Assembly (NCBI GenBank): GCA_017654855.1
Contig: CM030336.1
Location: 3,720,001 to 3,784,000 of the forward strand
Reading direction: 5' to 3'
DNA from: Podospora anserina
Lineage: Eukaryota
Length of the DNA stretch: 64,000 bases
The notes under the pieces were generated by a model. That model saw nothing but the letters and a program-made list of their open reading frames with translations. It was not told where the DNA came from and ran no database searches. Positions within the stretch are counted from its first letter, which is position 1. Each line of letters starts with the position of its first letter. The position numbers and the translations under genes were made by a program. Of this stretch, positions 33,741 to 44,583 are shown in pieces.

Positions 33741-36281
33741 ATGGGCAAAAACAGAAAGTCCAAGCGCCAATTGATTCGTGACGAAAAACGCGCCAAGAAG
33801 CGCGGCCACGAGAACGCCGAAGAGGAAGTCCGCGATGCGAAACGCCAGCGCCGCACCGACGGCGACGAAGAGCACAACGCCGATTTCATCCCCCTCGACG
33901 GCGGCAATGGAGATATCCCCGGATTCGTGATTGATACCGTCGGAGACAAGCGCAGGGCTCATAAATATGAAGGGGGAGAGGTAGAGGCAGAGATCAACGG
34001 CCATGGCGGTGACGGTGGCGGTGGCGGTGGTCCGGGAAGCTTCGAAAGGGAATTCTTTGGCATGCTCGCCGAGGAGGAGCAGGAATATTTCCGACACGCC
34101 GACGAATTACTCGAGTTGAACGATTTCCCATCCGAGGAGGAGAAGACCATCTTCTTGGCGAATGTCTACAAGGAGGCCAAGGGCAAGGAGTTGAAGCTGG
34201 CCAGCTCGCAGTCTTGCTCGAGGCTGATGGAGAGGTTGATTCTGCTGTCGAATACGAAGCAGAAGAAGAGCATGTTTGATGCGTTTTCGGGGCACTTCAT
34301 CAGTCTGGTCACGCACAGATTTGCGAGCCATTGCTGTGAGAAGCTGTTTTTGCAGAGCGCGCCGGTGGTGACGCAGGAGTTGGCTGGGGAGGTGCCTGAG
34401 GAGGTGCCGGTGGAGGGTCAGGAAGAGGAGGAGTTGACCGAGAACCAGAAGATGAGCATGGAGGATCTGTTTCTGTTGACACTGGATGAGTTTGAGGAGC
34501 ACCTTTCGTTCTTGCTGTCGGATCGATATGGGTCGCACGCCCTGCGTGTGCTGCTATTGGTTCTGGCCGGGAGACCTCTGAATCAGGCTGGTGTCAAGTC
34601 ATTGCTGCAGGGCAAGAGCAAGGAGTATGTTACAGTCGAAGGTGCTGCGGCTAACGCGAGCGAGCTCATTTCACAGACAAGGACTGTTCCGTCCTCATTT
34701 ACTGCCGCTATCCAGAAGATTATCGTCGATTCGACAGCAAACCTGGATGGAGCCGCCCTGAGAGTCCTGGCCAAGCACCCTACTGGAAATCCGACTTTGC
34801 AACTTTTGTTGGACTTGGAGCTCTCCATGGCGCCAAAGGGCAAGAAGAAGGCGAAGAAGGGCGAAGAGGAGGAGAGGCAGGAAGAGCCAGTCAAGGAGAC
34901 ACTACTCGAGAAGCTTGTGCCCGGCGCGCCGGCATCGTTCGCCGAGGAGACCTCGCCGGCATGCGAATTCGTCAACAGCATGGTCTACGACCCAATCGGA
35001 TCCAGACTTCTCGAGACGCTCATCACCCACTGCCCAGGCAAAGTCTTCAAGGGCCTGCACGCTCACATCTTTGGACCACGGATCCAGAGTTTCCTCAGAA
35101 ACGACATTGCCTCGTACCCAGCCATCAAGGTTCTCAACCGTCTCAGCAAGGAAGATTTGGCCGATGCTGTTGAGAAGTCCCTCCCCGAGTTCGGGGCTCT
35201 TCTTGAAAAGGGGCGCCTCAATGTGGTCAAGACGTATTTTGAGCGCTGCCATGTTCGTAACGCGACTGCACAACTCGACCAGCTTCTTCAAGCGCTGACC
35301 AAGGCCTGCAACAACAACTGGAAGCACATCGTACCCAAGCTGTGCCCTCTTGAGGAAGAGAACGAGGAGGACAAGTCCAAAGAGAAGAAATTCCAGCCTG
35401 CTGAGGTCAAGAACAAGACTGCTCTCCTGTCGCATGGTTGCCAGATCGTCAGCACTCTGCTTTCCATCCCAGGGAACCCTGCCAAGGCGATGCAAACCTC
35501 TCTCTTGGCCCTCCCAGCTGACAAGATTCTGCGCATGGCAACCTTGAATGCTCACACTGCTGGCATCGTCACCAAGGCTCTCAGCACGCCACCTCAGCTC
35601 CCTCACTTCCACAAGTTGTTTGTCGCCGCCATGCTGCCCAACATCATCGATATGGCCCTGACTCATCACGGCAACCCCATCGTCTGCTCCATCATCACAA
35701 TGGCCTCCAAGGGTGACAAGGACGTGCCGGTGGTGCCTTTCCACCTGAAGGAGAATGTTATGGCTAAGCTCGAGCAGCGTGAGTCACAGCTGAGGGAGAG
35801 CTGGCTGGGGCGAAATGTGTGGAGGTCGTGGAAGGGTGATCTGTGGTCTAATCGCCGGCATGATTGGGTGAGGTGGGCAAAGGAGACGAATCCGGAGGAG
35901 TTGCGGCTGGCTGCTGCTGCTGGGGGCGCCAAGACTCTGGAGAAGCAGGAGGAGGCGCTCAAGAAGAGGACTGAAGCGCTACAAGAGGAGGCTTTCCCTG
36001 AGGAAATGGAAGAGGACCAACCAGAAGAGTCGGAGCCGGTGAAGGTGAAAAAGGAGAAGAAAGAAAAGAAGGAGAAGAAGGAGAAGAAGGAGAAGAAGGA
36101 GAAGAAGGAGAAGAAGGAGAAGAAGGAGAAGAAGGAGAAGAAGGAGAAGAAGGAGAAGAAGGAGAAGAAGGAGAAGAAGGAGAAGAAGGAGAAGAAGGAG
36201 AAGAAGGAGAAGAAGGAAAAGAAGGAAAAGAAGGAGAAGAAGCCAAAAGTAGAGGAGGACGCGATGGAGATTGATGGTTGA
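33741..36281 (+). CDS. NOP9: Nucleolar protein 9 (Pumilio/PUF-repeat pre-40S factor) with C-terminal KKE repeats; 846 aa, intronless
   Basis: FFGML.EEEQEYF, KELKLASSQSCSRLMERLI, HRFASHCCEKL, YGSHALR, IGSRLLE and GRNVW motifs typical of fungal Nop9. Confidence 0.92.
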   Translation: MGKNRKSKRQLIRDEKRAKKRGHENAEEEVRDAKRQRRTDGDEEHNADFIPLDGGNGDIPGFVIDTVGDKRRAHKYEGGEVEAEINGHGGDGGGGGGPGSFEREFFGMLAEEEQEYFRHADELLELNDFPSEEEKTIFLANVYKEAKGKELKLASSQSCSRLMERLILLSNTKQKKSMFDAFSGHFISLVTHRFASHCCEKLFLQSAPVVTQELAGEVPEEVPVEGQEEEELTENQKMSMEDLFLLTLDEFEEHLSFLLSDRYGSHALRVLLLVLAGRPLNQAGVKSLLQGKSKEYVTVEGAAANASELISQTRTVPSSFTAAIQKIIVDSTANLDGAALRVLAKHPTGNPTLQLLLDLELSMAPKGKKKAKKGEEEERQEEPVKETLLEKLVPGAPASFAEETSPACEFVNSMVYDPIGSRLLETLITHCPGKVFKGLHAHIFGPRIQSFLRNDIASYPAIKVLNRLSKEDLADAVEKSLPEFGALLEKGRLNVVKTYFERCHVRNATAQLDQLLQALTKACNNNWKHIVPKLCPLEEENEEDKSKEKKFQPAEVKNKTALLSHGCQIVSTLLSIPGNPAKAMQTSLLALPADKILRMATLNAHTAGIVTKALSTPPQLPHFHKLFVAAMLPNIIDMALTHHGNPIVCSIITMASKGDKDVPVVPFHLKENVMAKLEQRESQLRESWLGRNVWRSWKGDLWSNRRHDWVRWAKETNPEELRLAAAAGGAKTLEKQEEALKKRTEALQEEAFPEEMEEDQPEESEPVKVKKEKKEKKEKKEKKEKKEKKEKKEKKEKKEKKEKKEKKEKKEKKEKKEKKEKKEKKEKKEKKEKKPKVEEDAMEIDG
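36048..36236 (+). repeat. 9-bp coding tandem repeat (mostly AAGAAGGAG) encoding (KKE)21
   Basis: 189 nt = 21 units, counted from the sequence. Confidence 0.95.
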
Positions 36282-36653: not shown

Positions 36654-37397
36654 ATGCCTCCCAAAACCGTCATCGCCTTCGACCTCTACGGCACCGTCCT
36701 CTCCACCGCGTCCATTTCTTCCTCTCTCTCGTCAGTGTTATCCCTCCCGGCAGAAAAAGCAGGAGAGCTGGCTGGGTTGTGGCGGCGGTATCAACTGGAG
36801 TACACTTGGCGGTGTAATTCGATGGGGAGGTACACCGACTTCGAGACCATCACCCGCTCCTCCCTCAAACACGTCATCCCTGAGATCACGGCTGCCCAGA
36901 CCGACACTGTCATGGCAAGTTACAATAACCTGTCGATGTTTCCTGAGGTTCCGGACGCGCTGGCGACGATGGCGGAGAATGGGAGGCTTGTTGAGGGGTA
37001 TGTCTTTTCCAACGGGACAGAGCAAATGATGGGTGCGAGCGTGAATAGGAGTTCGGATTTGTGGAGTTTTGGGGCGGTGTTTAAGGGGTTGGTTAGCGTG
37101 GAGGGGGTGGGGAGGTATAAGCCTGATGCAGGGGTTTATGAGTATCTGGTTGGGCAGGTTGGGCGGACAGAGAAAAAGGGGGTTTGGTTGGTGAGTGGGA
37201 ATCCGTTTGATGTGCTTGGGGCGAAGGCTGCGGGGTTGAGGGCTTGTTGGGTTGATCGGGAGGGTGGGGGGTGGAGGGATCAGCTTGGGGAAGGGTTGGG
37301 GGTGGAGGGGCCGGATTTGGTTGTTAGGGGGGTTGATGAGGGGGTTGAGGGGATTTTGGAACGGATCAGATTAGGGGGGGAGGGGGGCGAAGTGTGA
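36654..37397 (+). CDS. Haloacid dehalogenase type II-like HAD hydrolase
   Basis: IAFDLYGTV motif I, WRRYQLEYTWR, FSNG, YKPD..VY, LVSGNPFDVLGAK. Confidence 0.9.
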   Translation: MPPKTVIAFDLYGTVLSTASISSSLSSVLSLPAEKAGELAGLWRRYQLEYTWRCNSMGRYTDFETITRSSLKHVIPEITAAQTDTVMASYNNLSMFPEVPDALATMAENGRLVEGYVFSNGTEQMMGASVNRSSDLWSFGAVFKGLVSVEGVGRYKPDAGVYEYLVGQVGRTEKKGVWLVSGNPFDVLGAKAAGLRACWVDREGGGWRDQLGEGLGVEGPDLVVRGVDEGVEGILERIRLGGEGGEV

Positions 37398-38338: not shown

Positions 38339-39887
38339 TGCTACTGTCGATAGTGATGTCTATTTAGGTGGTATGTTTGTTTTGTTTTGTTGTCTTTCTC
38401 AGGGGTAAAAGTGGAGTCGCTGATGCGTCAAGACAAAAAAGGTCGACTTTGGTAACAAAAGGCCAACTTGAAAGGTGAACAAAGGTGGCGGAATGTTACA
38501 TAAAGGTTGAAGAGCTCGGTGGGGCTTTCATTATTACTGTGAGGACGGTGAGCAAACGTCAGGTGAAATCGAAGCTGGTGATGGTGACGGTCGAGTGGCT
38601 GTTAGCAGCAACAAAGTTAGCGACTACCAGGCCAAAACTCTGCAAGATATAACTAGACTGTTTGGTGTTTGACCAATTTAGAAGATCAGGAAACCTACTT
38701 TTCACCTTCCAGAACCCCCTTGTTGATTCAATCTGCAATATGTACGCGATGCTTTCATCTAAAACCCCCTCTGCAGGCGAGACGCTCCGTCAAAGGACAG
38801 AGTTACGAATTTCTCACTGATTCTCAAGGTAAATACTCAACAATCTAGGTGTCTTGCTTCTTCATATTTATTTCCACAGAAGTGTCTGCGTACCCTAGAA
38901 CGCGTCACCGGTCATCCCAACTAGTTCCAACATCGGCCCCTTATCGCCGACTTCCCTGGTGATAGTTCTCTAGATAAGCTATTGAGGAAAGAACGAAAAA
39001 GCCATCCGGGTACTGTTCGCGCGCACTGGGCTAGGCAGTGCCTGCCTTCCACTTGATATTATCTCGATCAACTTTGGCCTCGCCCTCTCTCTCTCTTCTT
39101 CTTCTCTCCTCACGGCATCAAACAAAAACTGCTCGCCCTGCCCACGCCACAAGTAAGTTGTCATTTCCTGTTTGTTTTGGTTGTTTTCTTGGCTTCATCG
39201 TTCGATATTTTACGGCTGCTTCTTTTGTTTACCTCAAAAGGGGTGGTCAAGTCTTGGGTCGGTCGCCACGGCGATTCGGGACTGACAGACGACTACTTTG
39301 GGTCTGGGAATGCCTTCGACTCCAGGTTTGGCCGTCAACAACTTCTGTTGACACCAGATTCCGCCATCTACAACTTCCATCGACTTCACACTCGCTCGTC
39401 TTCAAGTTTGTTTGGCCTTGGATATGGCCGTTGGCGAGCGTCCTTGACAACAGTACAGGCACCGCCATGTCGCCAGTTTAGATATACTCTAGCTGGGCAA
39501 ATCGACACAACACCGATAGGAGCTCCCACTGGGTCCGAAAATAACCTGCTGGAGGACGGCGTCTACTCCGATGTGGATTACAAGAGAGCTTCATCCATGA
39601 CAATCTGCAAAATACCATCGACCCTCACACTTTGTCCGCTTCTGAGCGCGCCTTGGAGTACATCAAACCGCAAGAGACCACACCATCACCTCTCCTTACG
39701 AGACAAGCGGCTGGGGTTGAAATCTCAGCCACAGCAGCATCTCAGAGTTGGGAATGGTTATCAACATGCTATATACTAACACCTTGTTCTCTAGCAATAA
39801 CACAAACACACACTCCCCCTCTGCTTTTTTTTTTGTTTTTTTTTGTTTTTTTTGGAAAAAAAAGAAAAGAAAAAAGAGGCAAGAAAG

Positions 39888-41354
39888 ATGGGGCGGTCGG
39901 GGTATGTCAGCGATCTACATCTAATGCCAATCTGAAAAGCAAATAAATGCTGATGTTCTACTAGATATGACACGACCAACCTGGGGCCGTTCGGCGTCCC
40001 TGGCTCTTCGGCGCCCCCCCCTCCTCCTCCTGTATGTTTTCACCAAGTCCCGGTTTTTCCTACTCGCGAGCGAACATTATCCTGGCAGCTGGGAGTATAC
40101 CATTTTTTTCCGTTCACGTTTGCTAACAATCTTTTTTTCCACAGCCTCGCGGAGGATCTGGGGTGGGTGACGGTCCCGGCGGCCGCGGCCGGAAGCGCGC
40201 GGCCCCTGGTCAGGGGGGGTCCAGGAAGAGGGCCAAGAAGGCCGTAAGTACATTTTTTCTTTTTTTTCTTGGTGTGCAGATTCTTTTTTTGCTTTTGGGC
40301 AGCCAGTTGGCTTAGTGGCCTTGCTGGAGTTGAGTCGTTGACTTGCTTTCTTGTCGAGTTGAGGGGGATGCTTGTGTACGTCCGAGATGGACGGAACATG
40401 TCTGGTTCTATCTTGGGGCTTGGTGGCGTCAGTCTGAGGACTGTCACTTTCTCCCGTTTATTTTGGATCGGTCGAGTTGACTTGCGGCTGTTTTTGACGG
40501 TTGCATTGTCTGGGTGACTGGTCTCGGACGTCGAGGGATTGTATATGTCTTTGGACTGCTCTGCTTTTCTTTGCAGTTGTTTCCAACTCTTCTTTATCTG
40601 GCTTTAGACTGTCATTGGTTTTGGCTTGGCTTGCTTCAGACATTCGACTACTCGGACTTTTCTGTCTCATCAACACTTGCCTTGTTTATCCTGCCCATTT
40701 GAGTCCTCGCGCCCCGTCACACCACCACTCCATCGCTCCAGCAGAGACGCTGGTATCCCGCTTCTCGAGACTCTCATCATCGACGCAATGCCAGCAGGAC
40801 CACCTACAACAACAGCAGCGTTCGCAAGAGACCTCTCAAGGCGTCTGAACACAACCATGACACTGGGCTTCTCTTCTCCTTCAGGAGTATTACTGATGGT
40901 GTGGTGAAGGAATGGTAGTCAATATGTTGTCGAGGTTGAATTCGACAGTGCCGAAAGCTTCGGCCAACCTTCTTTGCTCTGTTACTTATTCTTCCCAGAA
41001 TAAAATGCCAAGGCAGCTGTGAATAAATATCTTGCTACCTTCAACACAAAGCTAACATCACTCTCTCCTTCCCAGAAAAAAAACAACGCCCGCGAAGAGG
41101 AGGAGGAAGAGGAGGAGGAGGAGAACCCCGCGGTGGCGGCGGTGGGCGGTGGTGGTGGAGAGGCCGGTACTGGTGCTGGTGGTGCTGGCAACGGCGAAAG
41201 GAGCGGCGGCTTCGCGGCTGCTGCCCCCGAGCCCGAGCCTGCTCAAGAGCAAGCTTTTGGTGGCTGTGGTGAGGGTGGAGATGAGGAGATGACGGAGGAG
41301 GAGATGGCGGCGGTGATGGAGGCGTGGCGGAGGGAGAATGGGCTGCAGGAGTGA
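39888..41354 (+). CDS. Micro-exon low-complexity protein (152 aa, starts MGRSGYDTT); coding exons 39888-39901, 39965-40031, 40145-40243, 41076-41354; probable 5'UTR intron 39153-39794
   Basis: Three coding introns with GTATGT/GTATGT/GTAAGT donors and GCTGAT/GCTAAC/GCTAAC branch sites, all phase-compatible, giving one open frame. Confidence 0.7.
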
Positions 41355-43343
41355 GCTCCTTGCTTGCTTGCTTACTGGCTGGGTGTGAGCCTCTCCTGGG
41401 ATTGTGGTGGTGGTCCTTTTTTGTCTCCCTGCTGGGTCTTGGACCTGGCGTTTTCTCTGCTGTGTGGCTGGCTGGCTGGTGTTTTTTTTTAAAAAAAAAC
41501 AGGAACGATAGGACTGGGAAGGGATCTGGGAGGCGCTGGGGCGCTGGGTTTGGCTGGGGTCTGGTTTGGGGCTTTGTGTTGGCTTGGGCTTTTTCCTCTG
41601 GTATTTTCGGTTCTGGTGTTTCTGTGGGGAAATTCTCTCTGGTCTGGGTTATTTGGGCGGGGGAGTGGCTTTTGTGATACAGTTTTTTTTCTGGCCTGAG
41701 AGAAAAAAGTGAATAAACCAGGAGGGGGTGGGGGGTGGGGGGGTTCGTCTTGAGTTATGGTGTTATCTTTCTTGTGAAATGTGTGATAATACGTGTGATT
41801 ATGTTTTGATGTTCTGTTCCTTGCTATGTCGATTTTTTTTATTTTTATTTTTCTTTTGGTGGGGGGGGGGGGCGTTTGTGAGCGCTGCTGAACTTCAACG
41901 TCTCTCAAACATGGGAAATGGCCAGGATGACCATATTAACTCGCCTCAAGGCATTACGAAGAGTGGCGCCCCTTTTTTTTTCGTTTTCGAGTACTTCCAT
42001 CGAGAGGTTTTAGGAACACTTTGGTCCCCATATCAACCTAAGAAGACTCGGCCCTCTCAGAGAGCTGGCTCCTAACCCTGGGAAACCTGTCTGCCAGTTC
42101 TCTTGCGGTTGCTGTATAGCTTGTTGGGCGCTTGTGGACGTATAAGCGCGGTCTTGAAGTTGTTGCTTCCATGGTCAAGTAGTTTGGTGGTCGTTTACAA
42201 ACATGAAAGAAAATCTGTTCCCGAGTTCTTCCTTCACGAGTATTGTATCCTCTTCCACATTTTGTCGAGGCTGGAATTCTGGACGCCCCTTGAGCGAGAT
42301 ACATGTTGAAGTGACGACGTGCTCGGAAGGCTAGAGTAGAGTACCTCAGCTCTGTCAAAAGTCACACAACCACATCACATCACAGGCCCCATAACCAACG
42401 TTTTACACAAGATTTTGTCATTTTATTACTCCAACACCCCACCCTTCGGCAAGGTCTCGAGAGTCTTTTTGCTAAAAATACATCGGCTCTGAACTCTGTT
42501 CATTTTTTTTTTGTCTTCTTATTTCATAATTGTGTTTCAGCCCCCCAACGACACAATTCAACCCAGACACTGAAGCAACAACCTGTCCTGGTCTCCATCT
42601 CTCTGACAAGAGGTACATCACACCACCGTAGACCTCTCTAAGAAAACAATAAAAACCAGAGAAATACACCCTCACCCCACCTCCAGAAACCCCCAACCCC
42701 CCAACTCCTCATCCCCTGTGTCGTATGCTTCATGTGTTGGGTATCAAAATCATCCCACCATGCACAATTCGTAAACCGTAAATGTCGTTGGATGTAAATC
42801 TCCTTCCTCGGGAGAGAGCAGCCTTCGGCTCTCAACCTGCATCAGTGCCCCAATCCGCAACGCCATTTCATCCGCATCCCAAACTCCGCGACACCGTCGC
42901 TTGCCCCTTGCTGTTGTTGTTATCTCTCTTGGAGTGTGCGTGACCATGGTCGCGGGTGACCCTCCGAAGTCTGAAACCCCTCAGTCCTGTCCCATCAACC
43001 ACCATCCTCACCCCTCTACCATTAAGTAGTACCAATACGTTGAAAAGAATCCCTTTGCCCAAATGCAGACCTGTTCCAAAACCTCACCCAATCCCTTGTT
43101 TATTCTTTTGCCCTTTTCCCATGTTTTTTCGCCTCGTTTATCATGTGTATCCCAATCGCAAACAAAAATACCACATCAAGCGGCAAAAAGAAAAAGCCAA
43201 CAAACACGAGTAAAAAAAAACTCGGGATAATCTCGCCCTATTGGCAAAATTAACGAAAAAAACTAATTCGATCGCGTACAAATACAGATTTGAACAGAAC
43301 GCTCGACTCAGCTGTATCACCCTTGGCGTTCCCAGCCTTGGGA

Positions 43344-44583
43344 TCATTGGGAAGCAGTACCGACGTCCTCAAACTCGGAAGGATTGAGAAGATCGTCCCA
43401 GTTGTCCACCGAAGCAACGGGCGATGTATCAGAAGCGACAAATGTCTCCTTGTTTGGCCCGTCACCGGCGATGTGTGACTGCTCCCGAAAGTCATATCCG
43501 GTGACGAAATCCGTATAACCGGAGCCCATGTCTTCAAAACTCATGTCGGCAAAGTAGGCCGTAGGAGAACCATGAAGCTCAGGATCGATTGCCTGGGCCA
43601 AGGTGTCGGGACTGCTGTTGGGCGCGGCAGTCATAAAGTTCTGGAACGACAACTCCTGGGACAGCATAGGTGAGTTGGATGCGCTGAAGTGGCCAAACGA
43701 GTTGTGCCTCGAGGCAGAGGCCATGATCTCGGCGGCGCTGTTGTCGATTTCACCCTCGGGTGAGGTAGGGTTGCTCGACGTACCCATCGAGACCGGTGAG
43801 ACCGATGCAGCTGGCTCCCGGCTGGTTGCTGACGAGTTTGATGCTGGGCTGATTGAGCGACGGGTGCGCCGCTGCCGAGGAGGGTACTCATGCGGCCCAT
43901 ACGAATACTGCATGTTGCCGAGTCCGAAGCTCTGCTGTGAAGCAAAGGACGGAGACTGCGAGAGTGGCTTGGACACACCTGAGTAAACGGGCATCTGAAG
44001 CTGCATTGGCATAGAAGACATGTGTGACGGTGGATACGGCGAGTATGTTGGCGTGAACTGAACTGGGTATGCCTGGACCCGGGGCATTACACTCCCAAAG
44101 ACTTGGTTGAATTGCTCGTCGACTTCCTGATAGCGGGCTCGAGTTTGGTAGTCCATTGTATGTTCGGCCAGACGGTGTCTTGGCAGGTCATCAATCTCGT
44201 CATACCACAGTCCTTTCTCGACATTTTCTTTGGTGATTTTGAAGCGCTTGCCAGTGCGCTGAAAGTGAACCTCGGATGCTTGGTGTGCGGATTTGAGGCG
44301 GTCCTCGAGACTTCGGTCCATGCGACGAGAAGCAGCCACATAGGCTCTTTCCTTGTTCTCCAAGTTGGACTTGACAGACTTGTCCATGGTTGTGTCGCTC
44401 TTGGCTGGCTGAGATGTTGAGGAGGTTCGTCGCTTGTGGGAAACGGTTGGCTTTTGCTGAGGAAGCTGTTAGCCATTGCAAAAAGCGTAGGCAAGCGTGG
44501 AGTCACTTGTGACTTACCTCTCTGACGGCTGTGTTGTCCTGCGGCGTCTCGGACGGTCGTGTTGATGGTGCACGTTTACCCAT
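43344..44583 (-). CDS. Hypothetical fungal protein with a basic helical N-terminal block and an S/P/Q-rich tail (possible regulator); exons 44583-44518 and 44456-43344
   Basis: Intron GTAAGT..GCTAAC..CAG extends the 347-aa ORF in frame; block KERAYVAASRRMDRSLEDRLKSAHQASEVHFQRTGKRFKIT...YDEIDD; acidic aromatic C-terminus. Confidence 0.8.

Follow-up and report, generated by a model that had tools for sequence, protein, structure and literature searches.

The locus described here lies on the + strand of a 64,000-nucleotide stretch of Podospora anserina DNA (the window, in which positions are counted) and carries a small spliced gene together with a decayed piece of a second gene upstream of it (Table 1). 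Read from the sequence, the 4 coding exons (14, 67, 99, and 279 nt) join in phase into a product of 152 amino acids, and all 4 introns have GT..AG ends. Each of them combines a GT donor with a CTRAY branch site and a YAG acceptor, and together they leave an in-frame product, the features by which U2-type introns are recognized. Donors followed by a branch site and acceptor occur 4 times on the + strand of the region and not once on the − strand, and 4 or more such pairs appeared in 0 of 500 dinucleotide shuffles (shuffle mean 0.27), a large margin for a region that was picked post hoc. A Markov model, for which 39 genomic stretches of ten kilobases each served as training set, gave the spliced frame a coding score of 0.090, higher than all 138 non-coding pieces and than 90 of the 95 held-out coding pieces, while its shifted frames scored 0.014 and −0.058. 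Because the reverse complement of the spliced coding sequence (CDS) still scored 0.052, the coding score is inflated by simple repeats. Retention of the 63-nt intron leads to a stop after 15 codons, and skipping of the 99-nt exon preserves the frame. The internal exon chain and the 5′UTR intron rest on these sequence signals and not on reads.

A preliminary description of this DNA had proposed a hidden gene of modular design with 2 unusually long introns. Its coordinates, its exon and intron sizes, and its in-phase 152-residue product were all reproduced in the sequence, and the small modular spliced gene is backed by the splice signals, the coding score, and the predicted structure. The 642- and 832-nt introns are indeed long, being 8 to 10 times the published species mean of 79 nt and below the published maximum of 2,503 nt (PMC2441463). 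The gene is invisible in the open reading frame track, as the description said, but it is not hidden, because it is annotated with the same start and stop as Pa_5_8650.

Table 1. Features of the Pa_5_8650 locus (window positions)
Feature	Position	Strand	Basis and remarks
Pyrimidine-rich core-promoter-like tract and putative non-coding first exon	39080..39152	+	Sequence
Putative 5′UTR intron, 642 nt	39153..39794	+	GTAAGT donor, branch site 39775, TAG acceptor; outside the published transcript model
Decayed fragment of the conserved hypothetical gene G000:C7:2670031-2671701 (−)	39333..39593 (certain core 39468-39590)	+	DNA search, alignment, profile
Possible further collinear piece of the same gene (CDS bases ~740-915)	39600..39780	+	Suggestive
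Exon: 5′UTR (T run, then A run) and first 14 coding bases	39795..39901	+	ATG at 39888
Intron, 63 nt, phase 2	39902..39964	+	Splice signals; branch site 39949
Coding exon, 67 nt, poly-Pro at its end	39965..40031	+	Sequence
Intron, 113 nt, phase 0	40032..40144	+	Splice signals; branch site 40122
Coding exon, 99 nt, symmetric (0-0), with the Gly/Arg stretch and the larger part of the bipartite-NLS-like basic block	40145..40243	+	
Intron, 832 nt, phase 0	40244..41075	+	Splice signals; branch site 41051
Last coding exon, 279 nt: E10 run, Gly/Ala linker, C-terminal amphipathic helix (predicted)	41076..41354	+	TGA at 41352-41354
3′UTR of the published transcript model	41355..42637	+	Mapping of PMC9801653

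The annotated gene Pa_5_8650 and its transcript

The locus is the already annotated P. anserina gene Pa_5_8650. We mapped 11 published CDS around the locus from Table S1 of PMC9801653; their starts and stops land on ATGs and stop codons of the window at neighboring offsets, and the chromosome-5 rows of that table fit the window while the chromosome-6 rows do not. The CDS ends listed there for Pa_5_8650, computed onto the window, are exactly 39888 and 41354, and the 2-base start/end pattern of this gene is identical in 5 other + strand genes of the same mapping. Strand, neighbors, and gene order agree as well, and the neighbor Pa_5_8640, a "putative dehalogenase," is in accord with the HAD match at 36654. 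Small indels separate the window from the published reference, so that the DNA belongs to P. anserina or a very close member of its species complex. In the NOP9 gene (33741-36281), which has a long Lys-Lys-Glu repeat at its end, the repeat accounts for 36 extra bases in the window.

Table S1 of PMC9801653 has one transcript row for Pa_5_8650, from ~39825 to ~42637 in a stranded dataset, with a StringTie coverage of at least 10 and overlapping the whole CDS. The method of that study keeps the best-covered models that span a whole CDS and gives transcript ends rather than an exon chain or junctions. At its 3′ side, this transcript and that of the convergent gene Pa_5_8660 (42505-43344) overlap by ~130 nt. 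At its 5′ side, the sole published model starts 63 nt ahead of the ATG, downstream of the putative 5′UTR intron, and the 3 supplementary tables of PMC9801653 contain no row with a coordinate near the upstream exon. Both points speak for an alternative anatomy in which 39153-39794 is not used as an intron, transcripts begin near 39825, and the relic belongs to promoter or intergenic DNA. Against it stand the perfect donor at 39153, the perfect branch site and acceptor at 39775-39794, and the pyrimidine-rich tract before 39110; moreover, the published start falls inside a T run, where short reads are cut, and contig mapping skips 39789-39880 as a repeat. We thus consider this anatomy somewhat less likely than the use of the intron, although it deserves to be kept in view. 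The T run and A run of the 5′UTR (39810-39907) fold into a long hairpin that includes the start codon (−37.1 kcal/mol, z −3.9, equaled by 0 of 200 shuffles); the hairpin rests on simple repeats and is perhaps incidental, and it could dampen translation.

From 3 runs guessed to be RNA, 7 short contigs mapped to the locus; they leave most exons uncovered and speak neither for nor against expression. In the contigs of 4 runs (these 3 and 1 other), which give scant exon cover, spliced junctions were not seen, and neither was skipping of the 99-nt exon. One contig of depth 2, from a run only guessed to be RNA, runs unspliced across the third acceptor (that of the 113-nt intron), and another from a run of this kind covers the stop codon. 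Four more, of depth 2 to 3 and from 2 such runs, fall within the last intron (40334-40899); their source may be DNA or pre-mRNA.

In the supplements of PMC4835503 and PMC3689799, Pa_5_8650 is labeled as of "unknown function," as an orphan, and as a gene without N. crassa orthologue, and its expression is unchanged in 2 non-self response datasets. The orphan label in the P. anserina tables consulted denotes a single BLASTP match and is carried by 640 genes. A full-text literature search for the gene name Pa_5_8650 returned no relevant paper, and the gene is absent from 7 supplements of PMC6709928.

The gene relic in the upstream intron and the length of the introns

Within the putative 5′UTR intron, the core of the relic is 80% identical over 123 bp (E 5e-24) to an intronless gene of 557 codons on another chromosome (hereafter the C7 gene), and the alignment extends to ~39333-39593. 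The protein of this gene belongs to a widespread Sordariomycete and conserved Ascomycota family (333 matches) with strongly conserved short blocks; it has no Pfam domain or name, and the family is uncharacterized. Against a profile of this family the relic scored 56 bits and showed 3 changes unseen in 118 homologues. Two residues that are invariant in 118 of 118 homologues are altered, and a further invariant Gly is altered in a relative's copy of the relic. Among the 41 relic codons, 10 carry silent changes only and 9 residue-changing ones; 21 of the base changes are transitions and 4 are transversions. The relic has the marks of an unprocessed pseudogene fragment: it resembles part of an intact gene, has lost conserved residues, and lacks a start codon. 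Since invariant residues are broken, including the Gly in the relative's copy, the segment at 39333-39593 is a dead gene fragment, and the 642-nt intron is long partly because this scrap of another gene sits inside it. The flanks of the relic may come from the C7 gene as well: their scores are reached by 4 of 74 and 3 of 74 control gene stretches, the latter figure being that for the collinear piece at 39600..39780, which under 2 scorings is equaled by 2 of 200 and 83 of 300 shuffles. A stop-free frame of 240 codons (39060-39779) spans the upstream intron, and 165 of its codons are open in a relative's contig (156 of 165 identical). We rejected this frame as a gene: it has no ATG before the relic motif, its coding score is 0.003, and invariant residues are lost.

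The length of the 832-nt last intron is unexplained by either Rfam or a genome copy search. A DNA search and searches with 2 of its 13 open stretches of at least 45 codons matched only the locus itself. In Rfam, which covers curated families only, none of 20 matches (E up to 10) reached the gathering score; 16 of them fall on the T/A run and none within the last intron. The − strand of its first half (40245-40685) holds ~146 codons with one stop that look protein-like by eye; this stretch scores as non-coding (−0.051), and the genome contains its 75-codon part only once. Several short inverted repeats, also noted by eye, lie near the 3′ end of the intron (40915-41040), where Rfam gave no match.

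Two broader explanations were considered. One is that the long introns serve to host a non-coding RNA, for example a snoRNA, and that the peptide is incidental. Filamentous fungi have intronic snoRNAs, and the 4 contigs inside the last intron would suit such a transcript, but their low depth and possible origin from DNA or pre-mRNA, together with the Rfam result, make this explanation very improbable. The other sees the entire locus as a copy of the C7 gene that has decayed, with the 3′ half of this gene turned into the last intron and last exon. At the DNA level, 40513-41398 aligns collinearly with that half and scores above 199 of 200 shuffles, and 40742-40840 gives a weak profile match (E 0.035). 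When real gene ends were used as controls, however, 6 of 74 and 25 of 74 reached the same score; for the last intron alone 40 of 74 controls did so and for the last exon alone 12 of 74, and unrelated stretches of the window outscore the 40742 piece on the profile. The score is thus ordinary and duplication of the whole locus is largely refuted, which leaves it hardly any probability.

Predicted properties and origin of the protein

The spliced protein has a mass of 15 kDa and a pI of 4.7, and 95 of its 152 residues are Gly (35), Glu (24), Ala (21), or Pro (15). Net charge is +11 in residues 28-63 and then −9, −4, and −8 in successive blocks. The classical bipartite nuclear localization signal (NLS) consists of 2 basic residues, a spacer of 10 to 12 residues, and at least 3 basic residues of 5. 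This spacing is found from residues 43 and 44 (3 of 5 and 4 of 5 basic), which bears out the NLS-like block of the preliminary description at the level of a motif. The core of an AT-hook is Gly-Arg-Pro flanked by basic residues; the basic block has Gly-Arg-Lys instead, so that an AT-hook/HMGA core is absent, and Pfam gave no match. More generally, Pfam assigned no family to any of the 3 coding exons tested. A single-sequence structure model of the last exon contains one confident helix (exon residues 74-87) and leaves the remainder unstructured (pTM 0.28). Taken from motifs and model, the product is most likely a disordered nuclear polyampholyte.

In the reading that we favor, and that we hold to be probable, Pa_5_8650 is confined to its lineage or evolves fast, has ordinary U2-type introns, and encodes a small disordered nuclear adaptor, and its upstream intron has grown by a piece of another gene. 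Removal of the 3 coding introns would yield the 15-kDa protein in an almost fully disordered state. Its basic block (residues 28-63) could, as the motif suggests, mediate nuclear entry through importin α, and in the nucleus the Gly/Arg-basic block might contact nucleic acid, a role proposed from motifs that lie in low-complexity sequence. The acidic runs and the lone C-terminal amphipathic helix may serve to bind a basic protein, for instance a histone or a ribosomal protein, and the product would act as a minor, dispensable adaptor. The upstream intron, in turn, would have been lengthened when it captured part of a duplicated coding gene, and this part then decayed.

The main rivals to a disordered nuclear adaptor are a proto-gene and a diverged micro-peptide gene. 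A protein search with the last exon accepted 0 of 80 candidates (50-161 aa) as homologues, a search against 1.84 billion representatives returned a single match, a six-fold tandem-repeat open reading frame that looks unrelated, and Atlas gave no usable match. A control gene in the same protein database found 333 relatives, including those of Cercophora samala, Triangularia setosa, and Apiosordaria backusii at 87-91%. Since relatives of the control were found and none of the last exon, the protein tail is missing, left unannotated, or strongly diverged even among close genera, with the reservation that blanks from short queries are weak evidence: a 75-residue query derived from an intron missed its own clear family (1 match among 48 candidates). 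On the proto-gene account, Pa_5_8650 is young and is transcribed and spliced at a low level; its sequence derives from microsatellites, and selection on its protein is slight or absent. The residue composition given above, the missing homologues of the last exon in a database that includes close genera, the flat expression in published tests (PMC4835503, PMC3689799), the pseudogene relic at the same locus, and the repeat-rich lineage-specific genes described for Neurospora in the part of PMC11628664 consulted are all consistent with this account. Yet 3 or 4 near-consensus in-phase introns, an in-frame coding score well above those of the shifted frames, and a capped helix confidently predicted at the protein end suit an established gene better; we therefore regard a proto-gene as unlikely, if by no means negligible.

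The micro-peptide account starts from the N-terminus, for which the preliminary description had proposed an undescribed family with a conserved N-terminal signal. It takes Pa_5_8650 as a diverged member of an old fungal MGRxGY[D/N] micro-peptide family in which the first 7 to 9 residues are active and the repeat-built tail was added by read-through and exon gain. An exact MGRxGY[DN]-type protein start is expected ~0.008 times per 10,800 proteins, a figure that rises once the post hoc choice of the pattern is allowed for, and MGRGGYD-type starts occur among hypothetical Sordariomycete proteins. Pattern searches run on the P. anserina genome and on metagenome contigs found no relative, however. 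In the genome they gave 6, 1, and 12 matches versus 3, 1, and 5 for reversed controls; all were read, and no paralogue was recognized among them, with no relative among the 5 other split-motif and 11 other contiguous matches and nothing but the Pa_5_8650 locus fitting. A split-motif scan of metagenome contigs (introns of 41-71 nt) returned 1 match, in phage-like DNA and unrelated, and literature motif searches turned up no fungal peptide of the MGRGGYN type. In addition, the unspliced donor also reads Gly-Tyr, so that part of the motif can come from splice-site letters. With the orphan labels, no paralogue, and 1 unrelated metagenome match, the proposed family is unconfirmed. Nor is it refuted: a motif of 7 residues would escape orphan calls that rely on BLAST, and the homologue searches took the exons as separate queries. 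We consider membership in such an old family rather doubtful. The fuller version has a fairly slim chance. In it, a conserved fungal MGRxGY[DN] family has been overlooked and Pa_5_8650 represents it in Podospora, where a phase-2 intron interrupts the motif and a disordered, lineage-specific tail with an NLS on a skippable symmetric exon has been joined to it. If the micro-peptide account were true, the locus would show openly how a micro-peptide gene grows into a protein, at a place whose introns take up foreign gene pieces; and if the N-terminal motif were conserved, an annotated and deletable gene in a genetic model would be tied to a micro-peptide family missed by annotation, with a directly testable function. 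As it stands, the finding matters little: Pa_5_8650 is one of 640 published orphans, and the relic is a small example of gain in intron length.

Comparison with known systems

The nuclear adaptor that we favor would resemble prothymosin α and HMGA in its small size, its disorder, the separation of its charge blocks, and an NLS-like motif. It differs from them in having neither sequence similarity nor a Pfam match nor the GRP core of an AT-hook, and in being Gly/Ala-rich rather than Glu-dominated. Compared with the heptapeptide MGRGGYN, the N-terminus of Pa_5_8650 agrees in 5 of 7 residues and differs in 2; it has no stop and continues for 145 more residues, and its motif is split by an intron. 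The Pa_5_8650 annotation has the start codon, stop codon, strand, and neighbors in common with the model built here, whereas the published rows examined give ends only and include neither the upstream intron nor the gene relic in it. What is added here is therefore the relic in the upstream intron and not the gene itself. A near parallel is offered by repeat-rich lineage-specific genes of Neurospora such as NCU04998 and mas-1 (PMC11628664), which combine, as at Pa_5_8650, orphan status, a repeat-built CDS, and fossils of a duplicated gene in nearby non-coding DNA. For mas-1, that paper proposes that the fossil was recycled into the new gene, whereas the relic of Pa_5_8650 sits in a putative intron and none of the coding exons is traceable to it.
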